Part shown: positions 189-9,360 of the stretch, in pieces
Layout of the letters: the number at the start of each line of letters is the position of its first letter
Position numbering within the stretch: the first letter of the stretch is position 1
NCBI GenBank assembly: GCA_036563485.1
Contig: DATCMI010000001.1
Coordinates: forward strand, 516,938-580,937
DNA: 64,000 bases
DNA from: Sphingomicrobium sp.
GTDB taxonomy: Bacteria; Pseudomonadota; Alphaproteobacteria; Sphingomonadales; Sphingomonadaceae
Direction of reading: 5' to 3'
The notes under the pieces: model-generated
What the model saw: the letters and a program-made list of their open reading frames with translations, nothing else
Database searches by the model: none
What the model was told of the DNA's origin: nothing
Made by a program: the position numbers and the translations under genes

Positions 189-306
189 TTCGGCGATCCA
201 CCTGGGTGCGAGCGGTGGTCGAAACTTGAACGATCGTGGCTCGGCCTAGACGCGTGGCGGCTTGGCCCGTAACAGCCGCGAGGCCGCTCACAGCAAGGAT
301 ATCATC

Positions 307-1596
307 GTGGCAAACGTCACCGTCATCGGCGCCCAATGGGGCGACGAAGGCAAGGGCAAGATCGTCGATTGGCTCGCTAGCCGGGCGGACATGGTCGTTC
401 GCTTTCAGGGCGGCCACAATGCCGGGCACACGCTCGTCGTGCAGGGCAAGACCTACAAGCTGTCGCTGCTTCCGAGCGGGATCGTCACCGGCACACCGTC
501 TATCATCGGCAATGGCGTCGTCCTCGACCCATGGGCGCTGAAGGCAGAGATCGAGCGCTTGTCCGAGCAGGGGGTGACCATCACGCCCGACCTGTTGATG
601 ATCGCCGACAATTGCCCGCTGATCCTGCCAATCCACCGCGATCTCGATGCCTTGCGGGAAGACGCTAGCGGCGCCGGCAAGATCGGCACGACCCGCCGCG
701 GCATCGGCCCCGCTTACGAGGATAAGGTCGGCCGCCGCGCGATCCGCCTGTGCGACCTTGCGCACTTGGACCAGCTCGACCCGATGCTCGACCGCCTGTG
801 CGCCCACCACGATGCGCTTCGTGCCGGGTTCAGCGAGCCGCCGGTCGACCGCGAACGCCTTCGCGGCGACCTGGCCGACATCGCCGAGTTCGTGCTGCCG
901 TTTGCGAAGCCGGTCTGGCGTGCGCTCGACGAGGCGCGCGGCGCCGGCAAGCGGATCCTGTTCGAAGGCGCTCAGGGCGTGCTGCTAGACGTCGACCACG
1001 GCACCTATCCGTTCGTCACTTCGTCCAACAGCGTGTCCGGCACCGTGGCGTCGGGTAGCGGCACCGGACCGTCCGCGGCGGGGTTCGTCCTCGGCATCAC
1101 CAAGGCTTACACCACCCGCGTCGGCTCGGGCCCCTTCCCGACCGAGCAGGACAATGACATCGGCCAGACGCTGGGAGAGCGGGGACGCGAGTTCGGAACC
1201 GTGACGGGACGCAAGCGCCGCTGCGGCTGGTTCGATGCCGTGCTGGTCCGCCAGGCCGTTGCAGTCGGCGGCGTTACCGGCATCGCGCTCACCAAGCTCG
1301 ATGTGCTCGACACGGTGGAAACGGTGAAAGTTTGCACCGGATACCGCTTGGACGGGGCGGAGATCGACTATCTGCCGGCGCACGCCGCCGATCAGGCCCG
1401 GGTCGAGCCGATCTACGAAGAGATAAAGGGCTGGTGCGAATCGACCGAGGGCGCGCGCAGCTGGGCCGACCTGCCGGCGCGGGCAATCAAATACGTCCGC
1501 CGCATCGAGGAACTGATCCGCTGTCCGGTCGCGTTGGTCAGCACCTCGCCGGAGCGCGACGACACCATTCTCGTTCGGGATCCATTCGCCGGCTGA
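307..1596 (+). CDS. purA: Adenylosuccinate synthetase
   Basis: N-terminus [21 protein letters not shown] (P-loop GDEGKGK), [21 protein letters not shown] and [11 protein letters not shown] motifs. GTG at 307 matches the usual PurA N-terminus better than the upstream ATG at 262. Confidence 0.97.
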
Positions 1597-1683
1597 TCGG
1601 CCGCAAGTTCGCATTGATCCGGTACCGATGAATGCGACAGGGCCTGTTCCCGGGTTTCGGCTCGGGATCGCCCGCCACGCATG

Positions 1684-2346
1684 CTAGCCAGACGTTGCCC
1701 ACAGGGCGGCGCGGCTCGATTCATGTCCAGATGCCGAGGGCATCAGCGCGCGGAAATCGTCGGTGAAGTGCCCGTCGACGCGGATGCTCCACGCCAGCTC
1801 GCCGGTCGCATCTCCGCCATGATATTGGTTCACGGTATCGAACCACGCCGAGTGCCCGGCGACGTAAAGCTTCTCGCCCGTCACCGGGTCAAGCATGTAG
1901 AATGGCTTGGCCAGATTCGTGCGCAGCCAGATGAATTCGTGGCAGAGGTCGATGCTGTCGTGGTCGCGGTGCGGGGTGACCGCGCGACCTTCGGGATCGT
2001 ACATGATCAGCATGCGCCCGGTCGCCTGGAACGGCAGCGTGGCGATGAAGTCCATCAGTTCCGCGAATCCTCGCGCTTCCTCGCTCGCGCTCCAAAGGTC
2101 CGGCCGGTCTAGCTCGTAATAATTATCCGGCCCGTCCGATCGCGACAAATAAACCATGCGCGAGCCGGGCAGCGTTGGTGCGTCCGCCTCAAGTGTGAAC
2201 GGCCCGGTATAGAAATGCAGGTCCTCCTCGGCCGCGACGCGCCGTTCGAGCCGCTCGCGGATGTAGTGGTCGAGCCCGCGCAGCCGCGCGACATCGAGGA
2301 ACGCGTCGAGGTCCTTGTACGACGGATAAATCGCGCCGCCGCTCAC
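1684..2346 (-). CDS. Hypothetical protein, cupin / Fe(II)-oxygenase-like (Asp/Asn beta-hydroxylase-like HxD...H pattern)
   Basis: 220-aa ORF with TPHRDHD ... GHSAWFDTVNQYHGGD, which resembles the H-x-D ... FD-x4-H layout of AspH/LpxO-type cupins. GTG start without a clear SD. Divergent from the ATP-grasp/decarboxylase gene. Confidence 0.55.
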   Translation of the reverse strand: MSGGAIYPSYKDLDAFLDVARLRGLDHYIRERLERRVAAEEDLHFYTGPFTLEADAPTLPGSRMVYLSRSDGPDNYYELDRPDLWSASEEARGFAELMDFIATLPFQATGRMLIMYDPEGRAVTPHRDHDSIDLCHEFIWLRTNLAKPFYMLDPVTGEKLYVAGHSAWFDTVNQYHGGDATGELAWSIRVDGHFTDDFRALMPSASGHESSRAALWATSG

Positions 2347-2412
2347 AGCTGCAGCAGCTCAGTGGAACCAGCTACGCCGATGGGGGTTCTTTTAATTAAT
2401 AATCCCAATGAT

Positions 2413-2426
2413 TTAACCTAGGTTAA
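2413..2426. promoter_or_regulatory. Perfect 14-bp palindrome TTAACCTAGGTTAA inside an AT-rich divergent promoter region
   Basis: Read directly. It sits in the only strongly AT-rich stretch (about 2388-2427, tttaattaataatcccaatgatttaacctaggttaa) between the divergent genes at 2346 and 2534. Confidence 0.6.
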
Positions 2427-2533
2427 GCACGTCAGTGCCGCCGGGGCGCGACACCTCCGCTTAACCACAGAAGTCCTTTTCCTGACAACAAATGGGTCGA
2501 AGCCTTGGCGCCGATCCCTCGGATCGGAGTGGC

Positions 2534-4798
2534 ATGAAAGTATATGTGAGCGGGCTATATTCCGGCGGGAACCCCCAGCCGGGAGTGGGTATCGTCCGGT
2601 CCGTCCGGCAGGGCTTCCCGTTCGCGACAATCGTCGGCGTCGAATATTCGAACCGGGTCTCGGGCATCCATTGGGAGGATCTCGACGAGCTATGGATTCA
2701 GCGCCCGTGGAGCGAGCTCGATCTCGATGCGTACGGCGCGCAGGTCCGCGGCGTGCTCGACGAGGGTGGGCTTTGGATTTCCGGCAGCGACCTCGAAGCG
2801 ATGTGGCTGGCCAGCATCTTCCCCGACGGACACCGCAACCTGCTTGCCCCGCCGAACGGCGCATTCAAGCGGATTACCAAACCCAGCGTGGAGGCCGCCG
2901 ACAAGCTCCCGGTCGAGGTGCCGACCTTCATTTCGACCGACCTCCCAGATTGGGAGCTCCACGCCTTCTGCCGCGCCCACAATTGGCGCGTGTGGCTCAA
3001 GGGGCCTTATTATGACGCGGCGCGCACGCCGACCTGGGACAGGTTCATCGCGGCGCGCGACGCGCTGACCAAAGTCTGGTCGACCGATCGCCTGTTCCTC
3101 CAGGCGCACGTCAGCGGTTACGAAGAGTCGGTGATGCTCGCCGCTTACCAGGGCGAGCTGCTCGGCTGCGTCAGCATGCGCAAGCGCGACATCACGCCCG
3201 AAGGCAAAACCTGGGCCGGGGACGTCTCGCCTGTGGACCCGAAGTTCGAAGAACCGCTGCGCGAGATGGTGCGGGACCTGAACTGGACCGGCGGCGGCGA
3301 GCTCGAGATGGTCCGCGATGCGGCCGGCCAGCGCTGGCTGCTCGAGATGAACCCGCGCTTCCCCGCCTGGGTGCATGGCGCGACGATCGCGGGGCACAAC
3401 CTGCCGGCGCTGCTGGTCCAGGCCGCCGCCGGCGTGAACGCGCGCAGGGCCAAGCCGCTCGCCAGCGAGTTCACCCGGGTGGTGCTCGAAGTGCCCGTGC
3501 GAGACGAATTCCCGCTGCCGGCGCTGCCAGAGCCCTTCGCGGGCGCCATTGGCCATTCGATGAAGCATCCGTCTGGTCTGACGTCGCTCGCGGAGCGACT
3601 GCACAAGGCAGACGCCGAACTGATCGGGATCGCGGAGGAGGAAGCGGTCGCCGACGGCATCCCTCAGGTGCCCGAGACCTTCCTGGACGACATCGCCGCC
3701 TACGACCTCGAGCGCCTGCAGACGCCGGAATTCCTCTACATGGGTTCGACTGCGGAACAGCTGTTCAGGCGTGCCGGCGAGCGGGCGCACCGGCTCAGCA
3801 CCAATGAAGTGCAGGTGGTCAGCGGCTATTCGATCAAGACGAACCCCGACGAGCGGCTCATCGGCCTGGCGCTGGAAAACGGCTTCCTCGCCGAAGCGAT
3901 CAGCCTGCTTGAGGTGCAAAAGGCGCTGAAGGTCGGCTTCCGCCCCGACCAGGTGATCCTCAACGGCCCCGGGAAATGGTGGCCGGAGGGGATGATGCCC
4001 AAGGAGCGGCTCCACGCCGTCTTCTGCGACAGCGTTGCGGACCTCGACCGCTGTGTCGACGCTCTTGCAACGGGCGAGATGGACTCGCGCCACGTCGGCA
4101 TTCGCATCAGGACCCCTAATGTGGTGTCCCGCTTTGGCATCCCGCTCGACAGCCCGGGCACGTTCCGCGCGCTTGTGGAAGCTGTCGAGCGCCTCCCGGC
4201 GCACGTCGCGTTCGGCGTCCATTTCCACATGGCCAGCTCGAACATCGGCGTCGCGCAATGGTGGCACCTGTTCGAATCGATGCTCAAATGGTGCCGTGCG
4301 ATCGAACAGCTCACGGGCAGGACGATCGAAATCCTCGACATGGGCGGCGGCTGGTTCCCCGACGATTGGCACTCGAGCGACGAAAGCAGGTTCGTTCGCG
4401 CTGTCGAACGCGTGAAAGCGGTGCTGCCGCGCGTCACGCAGATCGTGTCGGAGCCGGGCAAAGCCATGGCGCAGCCCTCGATGGCACTCGCCATGCGGAT
4501 TTTAGAAATTCAGGAACACGAGGATGATTCGATCGAAGCGGTTGTCGACGGATCGATCGCGGAGCTGCCGATGTACGCTTTCCAGCCGCACCGGATCTTG
4601 CGGCAGTGCGGGGAATCCGGTGCGCTGCAGCCGCTCGGGCGCGGCAAGACGCATCTCATGGGCCGGCTCTGCATGGAGCATGACATCGTAGCCACCAACG
4701 TCGCTCTGCCCGAAGGCACGCGCGCCGGCGACGTTCTCATTTTCTGCGATGCCGGCGGCTACGACAGGAGCATGTCTTATGTATTTGGTAGAGGTTGA
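2534..4798 (+). CDS. Fusion protein: N-terminal ATP-grasp ligase domain plus C-terminal fold-type III PLP-dependent decarboxylase (Orn/DAP/Arg decarboxylase family)
   Basis: N-terminal half: GGGELEMVRDAAGQRWLLEMNPRFPAWVHG (ATP-grasp E-x-NPR core). C-terminal half: YSIKTNP (PLP lysine), HFHMASS, ILDMGGGW, SEPGKAM, FCDAGGYDRSMSY. ATG at 2534 follows GGAG; the track start at 2492 is probably too long. Confidence 0.85.
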   Translation: MKVYVSGLYSGGNPQPGVGIVRSVRQGFPFATIVGVEYSNRVSGIHWEDLDELWIQRPWSELDLDAYGAQVRGVLDEGGLWISGSDLEAMWLASIFPDGHRNLLAPPNGAFKRITKPSVEAADKLPVEVPTFISTDLPDWELHAFCRAHNWRVWLKGPYYDAARTPTWDRFIAARDALTKVWSTDRLFLQAHVSGYEESVMLAAYQGELLGCVSMRKRDITPEGKTWAGDVSPVDPKFEEPLREMVRDLNWTGGGELEMVRDAAGQRWLLEMNPRFPAWVHGATIAGHNLPALLVQAAAGVNARRAKPLASEFTRVVLEVPVRDEFPLPALPEPFAGAIGHSMKHPSGLTSLAERLHKADAELIGIAEEEAVADGIPQVPETFLDDIAAYDLERLQTPEFLYMGSTAEQLFRRAGERAHRLSTNEVQVVSGYSIKTNPDERLIGLALENGFLAEAISLLEVQKALKVGFRPDQVILNGPGKWWPEGMMPKERLHAVFCDSVADLDRCVDALATGEMDSRHVGIRIRTPNVVSRFGIPLDSPGTFRALVEAVERLPAHVAFGVHFHMASSNIGVAQWWHLFESMLKWCRAIEQLTGRTIEILDMGGGWFPDDWHSSDESRFVRAVERVKAVLPRVTQIVSEPGKAMAQPSMALAMRILEIQEHEDDSIEAVVDGSIAELPMYAFQPHRILRQCGESGALQPLGRGKTHLMGRLCMEHDIVATNVALPEGTRAGDVLIFCDAGGYDRSMSYVFGRG

Positions 4799-5438
4799 GT
4801 CCGCCGCGAAGGACCAGGCGGCGGAGGTCGTAGCCCCGGGCGCCCCGAGCGACCGTTGGGAGGAGTTCCCGTACAGCCGCTTGTCGCATCACGGTGATCG
4901 CTGCTGCGAAATGGCGCGTCAGTGGGTGGTCGCGATGGACTTCGCGCAGCTGAACGGCGCGTCGGTCGAAAGCGGCCCGCGCTGGTTGCGCGAGAAGTAT
5001 AAGTGGGGCCCGTCGCCCTGGCCGATGCATTGGTGCGACGTCGTCGAGCGCGATACGATCGACTGCGGGGCGCACGCCGCGCTCGCACTCGAAGTGTTCG
5101 CCGCGCGCGGCCTGGCCGCGTTCCCCGCCCAGCTCGTGCAGAAGTACAGCAAGGAGGCGACGGACCAGTGGCGCGGCAGCTGGGAAGCCGAAGAGGTTTC
5201 CTGCCACTGGCTCGATGGCGAGCACATCTACCATGAGGCAACCGCGGTGCTGGTCGGCACCGGCGAGCTGAAGGTCTGGGACGGCAGCGCGGGCAGCTGG
5301 GTCAACCCGCGCCAGCGCGGCGGCTATGGCAGCGTCCTGTCGATTCGGGTGTTCGCCGACAGCCCGGAGGCGATCTCGAATGGGTTCCGCTGGGGTGAGC
5401 AGCGCATCGCCGCCAACCGCTGGCAGCAGATCGGCTAG
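4779..5438 (+). CDS. Hypothetical protein with a transglutaminase-like Cys...His...Asp arrangement
   Basis: The start (MYLVEVES) overlaps the stop of the upstream fusion gene by 20 nt, suggesting translational coupling. TIDCGAHAALALEVFAARGL ... IYHEATAVLVGTGELKVWDGS resembles the C / H / D core spacing of transglutaminase-fold cysteine peptidases. Confidence 0.6.
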   Translation: MYLVEVESAAKDQAAEVVAPGAPSDRWEEFPYSRLSHHGDRCCEMARQWVVAMDFAQLNGASVESGPRWLREKYKWGPSPWPMHWCDVVERDTIDCGAHAALALEVFAARGLAAFPAQLVQKYSKEATDQWRGSWEAEEVSCHWLDGEHIYHEATAVLVGTGELKVWDGSAGSWVNPRQRGGYGSVLSIRVFADSPEAISNGFRWGEQRIAANRWQQIG

Positions 5439-5893
5439 GCGGCCCAGCGCTTCATCAGGAAATAGCGGGCACCGCCGAGCGGGTGGTCGGGAATCTGCCC
5501 GGCAATTGAATACCCGAGCCGCTCGTAAAAGCCTCGCGCCTGGAAGCTGAAGGTGTCTAGCCACGCGCCGATGCAGCCCCGCGCCCGCGACTCTTCCTCC
5601 GCGCGGCTTAGGAGGCGGGCGCCGAGGCCGTGCCGGCGATGTGCATCCGGCACGAACAGGAGCTCGATGGCCAGCCAGTCATAAAGCGTGTTGCCCCACA
5701 GGCCGCCCAGGCAGGCGCCGGCTTGGTCGCGGAGGGCGATGCAAAGCGGCCGAGCGACCGCCGGCGCCGCATTGTCCGAGTTGAATTCTATGAGGCCGCT
5801 GAGGATTGCTTGGCGAAGGTCTTGGCTCGGAGCGTCGACGATCTCGATCGTGCCGCTCCAGTAAGGCGTGGTGGGCGGTGCTCCAGCGGTCAC
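5435..5893 (-). CDS. GNAT family N-acetyltransferase
   Basis: RRHGLGARLLSRAEEESRARGC ... FYERLGY (acetyl-CoA binding motif A). It overlaps the fabI stop by 4 nt, so it belongs to the fabI transcription unit. Confidence 0.85.
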   Translation of the reverse strand: MTAGAPPTTPYWSGTIEIVDAPSQDLRQAILSGLIEFNSDNAAPAVARPLCIALRDQAGACLGGLWGNTLYDWLAIELLFVPDAHRRHGLGARLLSRAEEESRARGCIGAWLDTFSFQARGFYERLGYSIAGQIPDHPLGGARYFLMKRWAA

Positions 5894-6693
5894 ACGGTTG
5901 CGATGTCGGGCGCGTCTTCGGCTTTCATGCCGACGACATTGTAGCCGGCGTCGACGTGGTGGATCTCGCCCGTGACTCCGCTGGCGAGATCGCTCAGCAG
6001 GTAGAGCCCGGCACCGCCGACATCCTCGATCGTGACATTGCGGCGGAGCGGTGAGTTAAACTCGTTCCACTTCATGATGTAGCGGAAGTCGCCGATGCCG
6101 CTCGCCGCCAGAGTTTTGATCGGGCCGGCAGAGATCGCGTTGACGCGGATGTTCTCGGGGCCGAGGTCCATGGCCAGATATTTGACGCTCGCCTCCAGGC
6201 CCGCCTTGGCGACGCCCATCACATTGTAGTGCGGGATCACCTTTTCGGCGCCGTAGTAGGTCAGCGTCAGGATCGAGCCGCCGTCGGCCATCAGCTTGCG
6301 TGCGCGCTGCGCGACCGCGACGAAGCTGTAGACCGAGATGTTCATGCTCATCAGGAAATTGTCCATCGACGTGTCGACGAACTTCCCGCGCAGCTCATTC
6401 TTGTCGGAAAAGCCGATTGCATGGACGACGAAGTCGAGCCTGCCCCAACGGTCGCGGATTTCGTCGAACGCCTTGTCGAGCGCGTCCATGCTGCTGACGT
6501 CGCAATCGATCAGGAAATCGGAGCCAAGCTCCGAAGCGAGCGGCCGCACCCGCTTTTCCAGCGCTTCGCCCTGGTAGGAGAATGCGAGTTCGGCACCCTG
6601 GCCGGCGAGCGCCCGCGCAATACCCCAGGCGAGCGATCGGTCGTTCGCCAGGCCCATGATCAGCCCACGCTTGCCTTCCATCAACTGGCTCAA
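5890..6693 (-). CDS. fabI: Enoyl-[acyl-carrier-protein] reductase (NADH)
   Basis: GKRGLIMGLANDRSLAWGIA, YYGAEKVIPHYNVMGVAKAGLEASVKYLA and RVNAISAGPIKTLAASGI are classic FabI motifs. Confidence 0.96.
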   Translation of the reverse strand: MSQLMEGKRGLIMGLANDRSLAWGIARALAGQGAELAFSYQGEALEKRVRPLASELGSDFLIDCDVSSMDALDKAFDEIRDRWGRLDFVVHAIGFSDKNELRGKFVDTSMDNFLMSMNISVYSFVAVAQRARKLMADGGSILTLTYYGAEKVIPHYNVMGVAKAGLEASVKYLAMDLGPENIRVNAISAGPIKTLAASGIGDFRYIMKWNEFNSPLRRNVTIEDVGGAGLYLLSDLASGVTGEIHHVDAGYNVVGMKAEDAPDIATV

Positions 6694-7724
6694 AGTTGCG
6701 GTCCCTCTCTTTGCGGCTCGGCCTGCACATCTTCACCCGGCTGCGGCTCTTCGACCTCGAGCTGGTCGCTGTACGGGCCGGTGTAGATTTCGCCCTTTAG
6801 CGCCGTGGCGCCGCTTTCGGCTAGCGCCGCGTTCAACTCCGCGCCGATGACGACGCCCAGCCCGACGATGAAGAAGAACAGCAAGGCGATCATCACGCCC
6901 GCGAGGCTGCCATAGGTCAGGCTGTAGCCGCCGACGAGACCGATCGCGGCCGGCAGCAGCTCGACGGTTCCGATCCACCACAAGGTCACGAACAGCGCGC
7001 CTGGCCATTTCCGGCATCCGCGCCTGCGGTAGCGCTTCGGGGTGAGCGCCAGAAACAGCACGTAGAAGGTGAAGAAGAGCGTCAGCGCCGGGACCAGCCG
7101 GTAAAGTCCCAGGCTGTGGCCGACGTCCTGTGCGAGCGGGAATTTGACGATGATCACATGATGGATCGAGCTGAGCGCCAGGCTTGCCGCGAAAGCGATC
7201 ATCAACAGCACGACCGCGGCGAGGATGATCAGCATCGACGCAAGCCGATATTCCCAGAAGGGAGCCGAGAATTTGACGCCGAACGCGCGCCGCAGGATGT
7301 CGCGGATGGTTTCGATGAAGCTCGCCGCCGTCCAGAGTCCGACCAGCGCACCGAACCACAGGAGCGGACCGGTGCGCGCGTCGAGCACTTCGGTGATTGG
7401 TTCGCGGAGTGTCTCGGCGACGCCCCGCGGCAGGCGCATGAGGATGTTGGCGACGGTCAGCTGCGCGTCCTGGCTTTGACCAAACAGGTGGGCGATCGCC
7501 GCCGCGAGGATGAAGAAGGGGAAAAGCGCTAGGATCGACAGATAAGCGAGATTCCCCGCGTGGATGAACCCGTCGTTGTAGACGCCGATCGAGACCCGCT
7601 TCACCACTTCCCACGCCGTGAGCCGCGGCTTGAGCTTCTCCTCGACTTCCGCGCCGAACGCCGCGCGAACGCTGGCGAGCCTTTTGCGCCTGGCTTCAGG
7701 AGATTGGGGAGACGGACCTGTCAT
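6690..7724 (-). CDS. YihY/BrkB (virulence factor BrkB) family inner-membrane protein
   Basis: NDGFIHAGNLAYLSILALFPFFIL, six hydrophobic segments and an acidic C-terminal tail. 4-nt overlap with the fabI start. Confidence 0.8.
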   Translation of the reverse strand: MTGPSPQSPEARRKRLASVRAAFGAEVEEKLKPRLTAWEVVKRVSIGVYNDGFIHAGNLAYLSILALFPFFILAAAIAHLFGQSQDAQLTVANILMRLPRGVAETLREPITEVLDARTGPLLWFGALVGLWTAASFIETIRDILRRAFGVKFSAPFWEYRLASMLIILAAVVLLMIAFAASLALSSIHHVIIVKFPLAQDVGHSLGLYRLVPALTLFFTFYVLFLALTPKRYRRRGCRKWPGALFVTLWWIGTVELLPAAIGLVGGYSLTYGSLAGVMIALLFFFIVGLGVVIGAELNAALAESGATALKGEIYTGPYSDQLEVEEPQPGEDVQAEPQREGPQL

Positions 7725-7735
7725 CAGCGGAAGGG

Positions 7736-8701
7736 CTAAACCCCAAGCGATGCTCGCGGGTTGCCGCCGCCGTTCCAGTTCTCGGCAAAACGCTGAAGCT
7801 CGGCGTCGTCGGCCGGCAGCTCAATTTCGAGGCTAACCAACTGGTCGCCGCGCTTGCCATCCTTGGCCGTGAAGCCGCGGCCTTTAAGGCGGAGGACCTT
7901 GCCGGAACTGGTGCCTTTGGGAACGGTCAGCATCACCGGACCTTCGGGCGTCGGCACCTTCACCTTGGCGCCGAGCACGGCTTCCTTGAGAGTCACGGGC
8001 AAGTTCAGGCGAATGTTGGTTCCGTCGCGGGTGAAGAAGCGGTGAGGCGCAATTTCGATCGTGACGATTGCGTCGCCGCGTCCGCCGGGCCCGTCCTGCC
8101 CTTTGCCCGACAGCCGGATCTTGGTGCCGTCCTCCAGCCCCTGCGGAAGCTTCAGGTCGATCGTCTTGCCGTCGCCGAGCGTGATCCGCTGCGGCTTGAG
8201 GGCCACGGCATCCTCGAACGGCACGCGCAGGCGATAAGCGATGTCGGCGCCCTTTTGCGGCGGCTGCGCGCGCTGCCGGAACCCGCTGAACGGTCCGCCG
8301 CGGCTTCGTCCACCAGCGCCGCCGCCGCCGCCGAACAGGCCCTCGAAGAGGTCACTGAGGTCTGCGGTCTCGGCACCGCCGAAGTTGAAATTCTCGAACC
8401 CTTCAGGCGCCGCCCCGGGCCGCTGTCCGCCACCCGGGGAATAGCCGCCGAAGCCGCCGCCGAACGGCATCTTGGGATTGCCGTCCTCGTCGATTTCGCC
8501 CCGATCGTAGCGCGCGCGTTTATCCTTGTCGGACAGCAGGTCGTAGGCGGCGGTCACTTCGCCAAACCGCTTGGCGGCGTCGGGATTATCTTTGTTGCGG
8601 TCGGGGTGAAGCTGCTTGGCGAGGTTCCGGTAAGCCTTCTTGATCTCCGCCTCGCTGGCGCCGCGCTTCAGCCCCAAACGCTGGTAGAGGTCTAGTGCCA
8701 T
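7736..8701 (-). CDS. DnaJ-family co-chaperone without zinc finger (CbpA-like curved-DNA-binding protein)
   Basis: J domain LYQRLGLKRGASEAEIKKAYRNLAKQLHPDRN, a Gly-rich linker, then DnaJ C-terminal substrate-binding repeats with no CxxCxGxG motifs. Confidence 0.85.
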   Translation of the reverse strand: MALDLYQRLGLKRGASEAEIKKAYRNLAKQLHPDRNKDNPDAAKRFGEVTAAYDLLSDKDKRARYDRGEIDEDGNPKMPFGGGFGGYSPGGGQRPGAAPEGFENFNFGGAETADLSDLFEGLFGGGGGAGGRSRGGPFSGFRQRAQPPQKGADIAYRLRVPFEDAVALKPQRITLGDGKTIDLKLPQGLEDGTKIRLSGKGQDGPGGRGDAIVTIEIAPHRFFTRDGTNIRLNLPVTLKEAVLGAKVKVPTPEGPVMLTVPKGTSSGKVLRLKGRGFTAKDGKRGDQLVSLEIELPADDAELQRFAENWNGGGNPRASLGV

Positions 8702-8781: not shown

Positions 8782-9360
8782 ATGGCTACCGACCCTTTCC
8801 AGCTGTTCGACGAGTGGTTCGCGGAAGCGCGCACAAGCGAGCCGAACGACCCAGAAGCCATGGCTTTCGCGACCGCCGACGAACGCGGCCGCCCCTCGGT
8901 GCGAATGGTCCTCCTCCGCCACGTCGGCGCCGACGGCTTCGGCTTTTTCACCAACCTCGACAGCCGCAAGGGGCGCGAGCTCGACGCCAACCCCTACGGT
9001 GCGCTCGCGCTCCACTGGAAATCCCTACGCCGGCAGGTGCGCGCGGAAGGCCCGGTGCGCCAGGTCTCAGACGAAGAAGCCGACGCATATTTCGCGTCGC
9101 GCAGCCGGGATTCGCGCATCGGCTCGTGGGCCTCGGACCAGTCCCGCCCGCTCGACAGCCGCGACACGTTCGAGCGGCGCATCTCCGAAGTCCAGCAGCG
9201 TTTCGAAGGCGCCGACGTGCCGCGGCCGCCGCGCTGGTCGGGCTTCCTGCTGATGCCGGAGAAGATCGAGTTCTGGAGCGACCGCGCGCATCGCCTGCAT
9301 GAGCGCCGGCTGTTCACCCGCCATGGCGACGGCTGGTCGGAAGGCTTGCTCTACCCGTGA
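8782..9360 (+). CDS. pdxH: Pyridoxamine 5'-phosphate oxidase
   Basis: PNDPEAMAFATADERGRPSVRMVLL, FFTNLDSRKGREL, EFWSDRAHRLHER and LYP at the C-terminus. Confidence 0.95.
   Translation: MATDPFQLFDEWFAEARTSEPNDPEAMAFATADERGRPSVRMVLLRHVGADGFGFFTNLDSRKGRELDANPYGALALHWKSLRRQVRAEGPVRQVSDEEADAYFASRSRDSRIGSWASDQSRPLDSRDTFERRISEVQQRFEGADVPRPPRWSGFLLMPEKIEFWSDRAHRLHERRLFTRHGDGWSEGLLYP

Follow-up and report, generated by a model that had tools for sequence, protein, structure and literature searches.

A widespread bacterial gene cassette couples an ATP-grasp–decarboxylase fusion to a putative orphan cysteine enzyme

Results

The cassette and its genes

We analysed a 64,000-nt window of a Sphingomicrobium sp. 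genome (assembly GCA_036563485.1, contig DATCMI010000001.1, positions 516,938 to 580,937 of the forward strand), near the start of which lies a compact cassette of three genes, here called A, B and C (Table 1). B encodes an intact ATP-grasp ligase domain joined to an intact pyridoxal 5′-phosphate (PLP) decarboxylase domain of the diaminopimelate (DAP) decarboxylase/FigC lineage. C, which follows it on the same strand, encodes a putative cysteine enzyme, and A, on the opposite strand, a predicted 2-oxoglutarate (2OG)/Fe(II) dioxygenase. The original prediction, made from the letters of the window and a list of its open reading frames (ORFs), had described three ORFs and a 20-nt overlap between B and C. 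Its coordinates agree with the ORF list (overlap at 4779–4798), and every motif that it quoted was found in the translations. Chance ORFs are excluded because A, B and C each have hundreds of homologues at 60–85% identity.

The open frame of B spans 2492–4798 on the plus strand; its start was set at the ATG at 2534, which is preceded by GGAG at 2526–2529, as homologues begin MK(I/V)Y(I/V)SG. The open frame of C spans 4749–5438, and its start was set at the ATG at 4779, which opens a MYL motif invariant in all close homologues.

Table 1 Features of the cassette and its surroundings in the 64,000-nt window (borders of the two B modules are approximate)
Feature	Position (nt)	Strand	Description
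Gene A	1684–2346	-	220 aa; from the ORF list; predicted 2OG/Fe(II) dioxygenase, orphan family, accessory cassette member
A–B divergent intergenic region	2347–2533	.	AT-rich core
Palindrome TTAACCTAGGTTAA	2413–2426	.	Candidate operator
Gene B	2534–4798	+	754 aa; fusion of ATP-grasp ligase and alanine-racemase-fold PLP decarboxylase
B ATP-grasp module	2534–3523	+	About aa 1–330; Pfam ATPgrasp_Ter core at nt 3089–3451
B PLP decarboxylase module	3716–4798	+	About aa 395–754; Orn_Arg_deC_N at nt 3797–4471; Orn_DAP_Arg_deC at nt 4475–4756
Gene C	4779–5438	+	219 aa; orphan; predicted transglutaminase/papain-like Cys-His-Asp enzyme
GNAT acetyltransferase gene	5435–5893	-	152 aa; Pfam Acetyltransf_1; possible accessory member
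purA	262–1596	+	Flank
fabI	5890–6693	-	Flank
BrkB-family membrane protein gene	6690–7724	-	Between fabI and the DnaJ-domain gene
DnaJ-domain gene	7736–8701	-	Between the BrkB-family gene and pdxH
pdxH (pyridoxamine 5′-phosphate oxidase)	8782–9360	+	Pfam PNPOx_N

B is a fusion of two catalytically complete domains

Searches with Pfam hidden Markov models (HMMs) matched both halves of B, in agreement with the domain calls of the original prediction: an ATP-grasp model (ATPgrasp_Ter) in the N-terminal half, and Orn_Arg_deC_N (61 bits, cutoff 23.4) and Orn_DAP_Arg_deC (28.2 bits, cutoff 23) in the C-terminal half. The ATPgrasp_Ter score of the window protein, 29.1–30.1 bits, lies right at its cutoff. 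Despite this borderline value we regard the ATP-grasp call, made at the level of sequence families, as solid, because all 30 of 30 diverse B N-terminal domains from other loci match ATPgrasp_Ter (best E 1.8e-10).

Among B homologues of 41–75% identity, K156, E256, E258, N273 and R275 are invariant and E271 is nearly so. These residues fall in the pattern WTGGxExE...NPRFPAW, which aligns with the E-x-N-x-R core of biotin carboxylase, K156 making up the nucleotide/Mg residue set with E256, E258, N273 and R275. At the sequence level the domain is remote from every solved ATP-grasp structure. In profile searches against the PDB, the biotin carboxylase and PurK cores reach E values of ~0.02–0.4 and a carbamoyl phosphate synthase (CPS)-like structural-genomics entry, 2pn1, reaches 2.2e-4; matches of the PRK12767 type in NCBIfam stay far under their cutoffs.

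The decarboxylase half is equally well conserved: K435, H565, G604, G606, E640, G642, C713 and Y743 are invariant over 35 B sequences down to 30% identity, G605 and P641 are nearly so, and E715 and D717 are also invariant in the family alignment. K435 is the Schiff-base lysine of the YSIKTNP motif, H565 the histidine of HxH and C713 the catalytic cysteine; G604–G606 form the glycine-rich phosphate loop, and E640, P641 and G642 the EPG motif. Approximately 100 full-length fused representatives reach down to ~31% identity to the window protein. The fusion that the original prediction had proposed is therefore real, and both of its halves keep their catalytic residues in a family that diverges to ~30% identity.

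When the profile of the decarboxylase half was compared with the PDB, the best match was the N-citrylornithine decarboxylase FigC/FslC (7kh2, 5e-50). DAP decarboxylase (9e-39), BtrK (1.7e-35) and ornithine decarboxylase (ODC, ~1e-22) rank behind it; 6knh, deposited as a 'probable DAP decarboxylase' and which we take to be SbnH, scores 1.5e-27. FigC thus outscores every decarboxylase of free amino acids by a wide margin, and decarboxylases of the ODC, arginine (ADC) and lysine (LDC) types score much lower. The loop after the catalytic cysteine reads CMEHD in the window protein (family consensus CMExD), as against CMQHD in FigC, where the methionine takes the place of an acidic residue by which simple substrates are held at their side-chain amine (PMC7857480). 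FigC, SbnH, AcsE, MccE and BtrK group with DAP decarboxylase and D-ODC in one clade, and the substrates of all five are amino acids already conjugated through the side chain (PMC7857480). Its closeness to FigC rather than to ODC, ADC or LDC, together with the methionine loop, suggests that the B decarboxylase belongs with these five enzymes.

B and C form an obligatory core and A is a frequent accessory

The B family comprises at least 339 clusters at 50% identity with E ≤ 1e-30, and a pattern scan found B encoded in 261 species-representative genomes. For comparisons of genome loci we used the best 80 of these 261 genomes; a metagenome scan seeded with a distant family member added 80 diverse loci, and HMMs of A, B and C were run on all of them, for 161 related loci overall. 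The best 80 genomes fall in the Sphingomonadales, Caulobacteraceae, Chthoniobacterales/Verrucomicrobiota and Pyrinomonadaceae (Acidobacteriota). Across the whole set, the cassette occurs in Alphaproteobacteria, Acidobacteriota, Verrucomicrobiota and Actinomycetota and on many unassigned soil and rhizosphere contigs; cultured carriers are Sphingomonas endolithica, S. qilianensis, S. xinjiangensis and Streptomyces zaomyceticus NBC_01228.

In all 140 of the 140 loci with at least 700 nt of downstream sequence, the gene immediately after B on the same strand is C. An overlap of the two genes is usual (20 nt in Sphingomonadales, 4 nt in Streptomyces), and in some proteins they are fused, with the C domain either N-terminal (P0505, HMM E 3.6e-13; P0486, 7.6e-9) or C-terminal (P0420, HMM E 2e-55; P0513 likewise); the P0505, P0486 and P0420 clusters have two members each, on contigs of differing listed length. 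Unbroken adjacency, overlapping genes and fusions in both orders identify B plus C as the functional unit. B and C are an obligatory, translationally coupled core, to which A is a frequent tailoring accessory. Among the 78 loci that extend at least 2.5 kb to either side, 65 carry an A-family gene beside the core (52/56 in the close genome set, 13/22 in the diverse set). This gene is transcribed divergently from an upstream position in 55 loci, lies upstream and in the direction of B in seven, and lies downstream in three. Several of the Pyrinomonadaceae loci L066–L081 carry two tandem paralogues of A. Co-occurrence of the trio, a check named in the original prediction, holds in so far as the genes travel together while their flanks do not; A is not constant, and the obligatory unit is B plus C only.

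The C/B fusion proteins are metagenomic, 944–1282 aa long, and have long low-complexity linkers. P0486 has an insert of ~165 aa inside its decarboxylase domain; a resemblance of this insert to Gcn5-related N-acetyltransferases (GNATs) was not confirmed by Pfam or phmmer. A further cluster, P0481, may also have an N-terminal C domain, as judged by visual inspection of a truncated N-terminal fragment; the C-domain HMM did not detect it.

The B proteins of the Acidobacteriota and Verrucomicrobiota loci (L057–L081) are 63–68% identical to that of the window, and the genes that flank the cassette differ everywhere between these loci and the window. Such identity across phyla points to horizontal transfer and, together with the unconserved flanks, fits a self-contained transferable module; from these comparisons the cassette looks horizontally mobile.

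Optional neighbours resemble small-molecule tailoring and transport genes

We found no conserved gene beyond A, B and C, either among ORFs of 80 aa or more in 81 loci or among those of 100 aa or more in 161 loci. Cross-phylum ORF clusters that appeared as candidate fourth core genes were shadow ORFs inside A, B or C, and one cluster, U243, was the tandem paralogue of A. In line with the original prediction, ORF clustering at the cassette loci revealed no conserved carrier-protein gene, and in the window the spaces between A, B, C and the GNAT gene are too small to hold one. Recurrent neighbours included no synthetase of the IucA/IucC type, that is, of the nonribosomal peptide synthetase (NRPS)-independent siderophore (NIS) type, and no siderophore transport genes. 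Searches with the PADLOC anti-phage defence models gave no match for A, B, C or the GNAT protein.

Several genes accompany the cassette in part of the loci. GNAT homologues of 45–70% identity lie beside it in 13 of the 80 genome loci and in 18 of the 161 loci overall, in three arrangements, which suggests a real but optional functional link. A 2OG dioxygenase of the TauD/TfdA family occurs with the cassette in 17 loci (L029, L140 and 15 others). Directly after C, 14 loci, all of them without A, carry a gene of the urea-transporter family (Pfam UT; among them L093, L138, L142, L145, L148, L150–L154, L158, L159 and L161). These genes score under the NCBIfam urea-transporter cutoff, so their substrate may not be urea. 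A major facilitator superfamily (MFS) transporter gene was seen near the cassette once. Membrane proteins of 420–440 aa encoded upstream in some A-less loci were set aside as candidate partners: they form two weakly related groups, have no Pfam match and are not general.

Some neighbours are confined to single loci. A lysyl-oxidase-like gene was found in this way, as were BPL_N genes and an M14 peptidase gene in L142. In L162, the B–C pair sits on a 271-kb linear plasmid of Streptomyces zaomyceticus (NZ_CP108525.1, 134492–136768 and 133908–134495), where both genes are annotated 'hypothetical protein'; a gene for a 505-aa protein of the fatty-acid-desaturase family follows C at this locus only, and WhiB and methyltransferase genes lie upstream.

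C is an orphan protein with a predicted Cys-His-Asp fold

Neither as a single sequence nor as a profile did C match any Pfam, NCBIfam, PADLOC or PDB sequence entry. None of 35 C family members matched Transglut_core, BtrH_N or any other clan CA Pfam family at E ≤ 1, and the C family profile found no match among PDB sequences. The AlphaFold2 model of C has a predicted local distance difference test score (pLDDT) of 82. Across 35 C homologues of 29–55% identity, C96 and H152 are invariant and D168 is kept in at least 90%. In the model C96 opens the helix 96–109, H152 lies in the strand 149–159 and D168 ends the strand 163–168, a predicted placement that corresponds to the papain/transglutaminase arrangement.

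Foldseek searches against the PDB returned best-ranked matches that nearly all belong to this one superfamily: the pseudomurein endoisopeptidase PeiP, 3isr (a Cytophaga transglutaminase-like 'cysteine protease'), LapG, TglA, vasohibin (VASH1), PNGase, TG2 and arylamine N-acetyltransferases (NATs). The crystal structure of CtaG, a papain-like transacylase, came at the bottom of the list with a probability below 0.1. C is thus weakly modelled as a transglutaminase/papain-like Cys-His-Asp protein. Of the transglutaminase-like core that had been proposed from residue spacing, the conserved Cys-His-Asp residues on the expected elements hold up, the fold matches point to the superfamily with weak scores, and the Transglut_core HMM does not match. 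Three further residues, H38, C43 and C86 (window positions ~4890–5036), are also invariant in the 35 homologues, and C42 is nearly so; H38, C43 and C86 may bind a metal, make up a disulfide or provide a second thiol site.

A is a predicted 2OG/Fe(II) dioxygenase

A, too, is an orphan at the sequence level: it has no Pfam or NCBIfam match at E ≤ 0.1, no PADLOC match and no PDB sequence match, profile searches included. Its AlphaFold2 model, built from 40-sequence alignments, is confident (pLDDT 87, predicted template modelling score (pTM) 0.87) and gave 124 Foldseek matches in the PDB at E ≤ 1e-3, and all 50 of the 50 listed are 2OG/Fe(II) oxygenases (TM 0.37–0.49). PHD2, Pseudomonas putida prolyl-4-hydroxylase, L-proline cis-4-hydroxylase and AlkB-type enzymes head the list (E ~2e-6, TM 0.44–0.49), which also contains a nucleoside-antibiotic hydroxylase.

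H126, D128, H176 and R189 are invariant in 40 A homologues. The first three, which correspond to the HRDHD...QYHG pattern picked out originally, make up the iron triad on the expected strands of the model. R189 lies 13 residues past the distal histidine, H176, on the next strand, and from this position it would bind the C5 carboxylate of 2OG. A is therefore modelled as a double-stranded beta-helix 2OG/Fe(II) dioxygenase. The cupin-like assignment of the original prediction is in this sense upheld by the model and by the invariant HxD...H residues, and the Asp_Arg_Hydrox HMM suggested with it finds no match.

The intergenic region contains a candidate operator

Between A and B, the GC content drops to 0.38 at 2375–2424 against ~0.65 around it. 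An AT-rich promoter shared by the two genes had been proposed here. The AT-rich core is present; because no sigma-70-type promoter was detected in the spacer (the sole match lies inside B), we can only infer that a promoter is shared. An Rfam search of 1500–6000 found no element at E ≤ 1, and a riboswitch or leader RNA upstream of B was set aside on this result.

The spacer contains a perfect 14-nt palindrome, TTAACCTAGGTTAA, that has no second match in the 64-kb window, and a half-site of it recurs at 2461–2466. In 15 related loci of the Sphingomonadales type, the same TTAACC-N2-GGTTAA repeat stands 125–139 nt upstream of B. Judged from these sequences, TTAACCTAGGTTAA is probably the operator of a regulator encoded outside the cassette.

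purA and fabI are not linked to the cassette elsewhere

The window cassette had been placed between purA and fabI. Both are indeed its flanks, but the GNAT gene between C and fabI had been overlooked; it is convergent with C, lies behind fabI on the minus strand, and overlaps its neighbour by 4 nt on each side. Neither purA nor fabI is linked to the cassette in any of the 80 genome loci, and a linkage to either was rejected on this basis. On the far side of fabI, the pyridoxamine 5′-phosphate oxidase gene pdxH lies 3.3 kb from the PLP-dependent fusion, with the BrkB-family and DnaJ-domain genes in between. This closeness is probably a coincidence.

Discussion

A proposed route from conjugation to decarboxylation

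We propose that the cassette encodes a compact, horizontally spread small-molecule pathway that conjugates an amino acid and then decarboxylates it, and we put the probability of this reading at about 0.5. The ATP-grasp domain of B would activate a carboxylate as an acyl-phosphate and form an amide (or thioester) in which the amino acid keeps a free end with its alpha-amino and alpha-carboxyl groups. The PLP domain would then strip the alpha-carboxylate to give an amide-linked amine, as FigC, SbnH, BtrK and CtaF do with side-chain-conjugated amino acids. The catalytic cysteine of C would form an acyl-enzyme and transfer or hydrolyse the acyl or amide group, in analogy to BtrH, CtaG and transglutaminases. 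Where present, A or a TauD-type enzyme may hydroxylate the product; acetylation of its free amine may be the task of the GNAT protein, and its transport that of a protein of the urea-transporter family or the MFS. By this analogy, the cassette probably makes an amide-linked amine.

Ligation followed by decarboxylation is favoured because B is nearest to FigC and has the non-acidic cysteine loop of FigC, and because every characterised member of the FigC clade acts after conjugation. The accessories A, TauD, GNAT, UT and MFS are, moreover, of the usual types for small-molecule tailoring and transport. A papain-like cysteine enzyme that works alongside an ATP-grasp and a decarboxylase of this fold also has a precedent, in the closthioamide and butirosin pathways (PMC7183216).

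Several points weigh against this proposal. We infer the order of reactions in B solely from its likeness to FigC and BtrK. Positions equivalent to the specificity helix of FigC are variable within the B family in the profile alignment, and substrates may accordingly differ from clade to clade. The transglutaminase-like assignment of C comes from its model and from weak Foldseek matches (E 5e-3 to 1, TM 0.3–0.41) and not from sequence homology. Finally, the known trios of ATP-grasp, decarboxylase and papain-like enzymes use a carrier protein, and none is conserved here; the cassette is thus not a member of the Btr/Cta family as defined, but it may work alike.

Alternative explanations

The alternative that survives best, which we consider unlikely, has the PLP domain act first: it would turn a free amino acid into a polyamine-like or other biogenic amine, the ATP-grasp domain would join this amine to a carboxylate, and C would be an amidase that reverses or controls the conjugation, an arrangement known from glutathionylspermidine synthetase/amidase. 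The pairing of an ATP-grasp with a papain-like enzyme, physically joined in the B/C fusion proteins, is compatible with this order. Decarboxylases of the same fold, as found in the list of PDB matches, make polyamines (PMC7857480), and the GNAT genes of some loci recall polyamine acetyltransferases. B is nevertheless closest to FigC and has a methionine where an Asp or Glu would bind a basic side chain, and ODC, ADC and LDC score far lower.

A thiotemplated pathway of the butirosin/closthioamide type is, in our judgement, quite unlikely. Here the ATP-grasp domain would load the side-chain carboxylate of Asp or Glu onto a thiol, provided by a carrier protein encoded elsewhere or by a cysteine of C, the PLP domain would decarboxylate the loaded residue, possibly iteratively, and C would transfer the chain to an acceptor. 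The same three folds cooperate in CtaD/CtaF/CtaG and BtrJ/BtrK/BtrH (PMC7183216), BtrK is a strong match to B (1.7e-35), C has three invariant cysteines (C43, C86 and C96), and B and C are physically coupled. However, 95% of CtaD-type loci encode a carrier protein (PMC7183216), whereas the cassette has no conserved extra ORF. CtaG is moreover a very weak fold match to C, and FigC, an enzyme of free metabolites, outscores BtrK.

A minimal, carrier-free form of amide assembly is a speculative extension that we likewise hold quite unlikely. B would alternate between ligating Asp or Glu by the side chain and decarboxylating it, much as CtaD and CtaF do on a carrier. The beta-alanyl or gamma-aminobutyryl unit or oligomer made in this way would arise either on a small amine or directly on the catalytic cysteine of C, and C would hand it to an acceptor. 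If true, soil bacteria would have a new and widespread route to omega-aminoacyl amides that is neither ribosomal nor NRPS-based and that draws on A and C, two families so far absent from Pfam.

Protein or peptide tagging appears distinctly improbable. A TTL/RimK-like ATP-grasp would add an amino acid to the C-terminus or a side chain of a protein, the tag would be decarboxylated, C would remove it as a transglutaminase-like peptidase or isopeptidase, and A would act as an enzyme of the protein prolyl-hydroxylase type. Prokaryotic operons that combine ATP-grasp enzymes with transglutaminase-like peptidases are predicted peptide-tagging systems (PMC3495828). The fold matches of C include vasohibin, the isopeptidase PeiP and TG2, and the best matches of A include protein prolyl hydroxylases. 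Against tagging, the TauD, GNAT and UT accessories point to small molecules, and no target or precursor gene is conserved. We know of no PLP decarboxylase of this fold that acts on proteins, except in carrier-tethered cases.

Least probable of all is the catabolism or salvage of an imported amide, ureido compound or cell-wall-derived peptide: the UT gene right after C in 14 loci, the cell-wall isopeptidases among the fold neighbours of C and the DAP-decarboxylase lineage of B would suit it, but an ATP-consuming ligase would be unusual there, the UT gene is confined to an A-less clade and no hydrolase/dehydrogenase suite is conserved at the loci.

What is new

In public annotation B goes under 'diaminopimelate decarboxylase' or 'ATP-grasp domain-containing protein', and both of its partners are listed as 'hypothetical protein'. 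A full-text literature search found no published description of the fusion or of the trio, although absence there is no proof. In agreement with the original prediction, no described pathway was found for the cassette. The single chemistries are known; what is new is the fusion, its obligatory orphan cysteine-enzyme partner, the absence of a carrier and the two families not yet in Pfam.

Siderophore, aminoglycoside and thioamide biosynthesis repeatedly combine a ligase with a decarboxylase that acts on the conjugated amino acid. Here the two are joined in one polypeptide and tied to an unannotated cysteine enzyme. Solving the cassette would assign functions to two orphan families, correct a common misannotation of B and probably add a small amine or amide to the known metabolites of soil bacteria. 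It would also test butirosin/closthioamide-type chemistry without a carrier protein.

Comparison with known systems

The analogy to BtrJ/BtrK drawn in the original prediction holds and extends further, as butirosin and closthioamide biosynthesis also use a papain-like cysteine transacylase, always with a carrier protein. In the module for the 4-amino-2-hydroxybutyrate (AHBA) side chain of butirosin, the ATP-grasp BtrJ links Glu by its side chain, BtrK removes the alpha-carboxylate and the Cys-His-Asp enzyme BtrH transfers the unit (PMC7183216), steps that resemble those proposed for the cassette; BtrK is a clear homologue of the C-terminal half of B. The two systems differ in that ligase and decarboxylase form one polypeptide here, the carrier BtrI has no counterpart gene here, and the aminoglycoside context is absent. 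C has no detectable sequence relation to BtrH_N, and the B decarboxylase is nearer to FigC than to BtrK. The hydroxylase, predicted to be a 2OG/Fe enzyme here, is a flavin enzyme there. Hydroxylation in the butirosin pathway is the step of BtrO/V.

Closthioamide biosynthesis, a non-canonical thiotemplated assembly whose protein set also includes CtaE/H, brings together the iterative ATP-grasp CtaD, the Orn/DAP/Arg-family decarboxylase CtaF, the papain-like transacylase CtaG and the transglutaminase CtaJ in one pathway (PMC7183216). Trios of ATP-grasp, decarboxylase and papain-like enzymes co-occur in more than 20% of CtaD-type loci, with a carrier protein encoded in 95% (PMC7183216). What the cassette shares with the Btr and Cta systems is an ATP-grasp, an alanine-racemase-fold decarboxylase and a papain-like cysteine enzyme in one locus, a likeness of folds only. 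The Cta enzymes are unfused and carrier-dependent, whereas the cassette comprises two to four genes and has no genes for thioamide or p-hydroxybenzoic acid (PHBA) formation.

In rhizoferrin biosynthesis, FigA/FigC (FslA/FslC) likewise ligate and then decarboxylate, on a free metabolite (PMC7857480), and FigC, the best solved homologue of B, shares with it the C-M-x-H-D loop. The FigA/FigC, SbnH and AcsE pathways differ in using a separate NIS synthetase of the IucA/IucC type instead of an ATP-grasp, and no citrate or siderophore genes or receptors are conserved around the cassette. To our knowledge, FigA/FigC-type pathways have no transglutaminase-like partner.

Two further enzymes offer parallels in organization. 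CoaBC (Dfp), a phosphopantothenoylcysteine synthetase fused to its decarboxylase, matches the action proposed for B in that one polypeptide first couples an amino acid by an amide bond and then takes off its carboxylate, but it does so with a CTP-dependent ligase and a flavin decarboxylase in place of ATP-grasp and PLP domains, and the folds are unrelated. Glutathionylspermidine synthetase/amidase physically combines an ATP-grasp amide synthetase with a papain-like amidase of the Cys-His type, and the two act on the same amide; it differs in having no decarboxylase and a CHAP amidase, and its domain order and sequences are unrelated.

A parallel to the GNAT accessory comes from microcin C maturation, where MccE is, like B, an alanine-racemase-fold decarboxylase of the clade that acts on conjugated substrates (PMC7857480). 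MccE works in the context of a peptide-nucleotide antibiotic and has neither an ATP-grasp nor a transglutaminase-like partner. It is fused to a GNAT acetyltransferase, and this coupling of decarboxylase and acetyltransferase parallels the GNAT genes that stand beside 18 of the cassettes.

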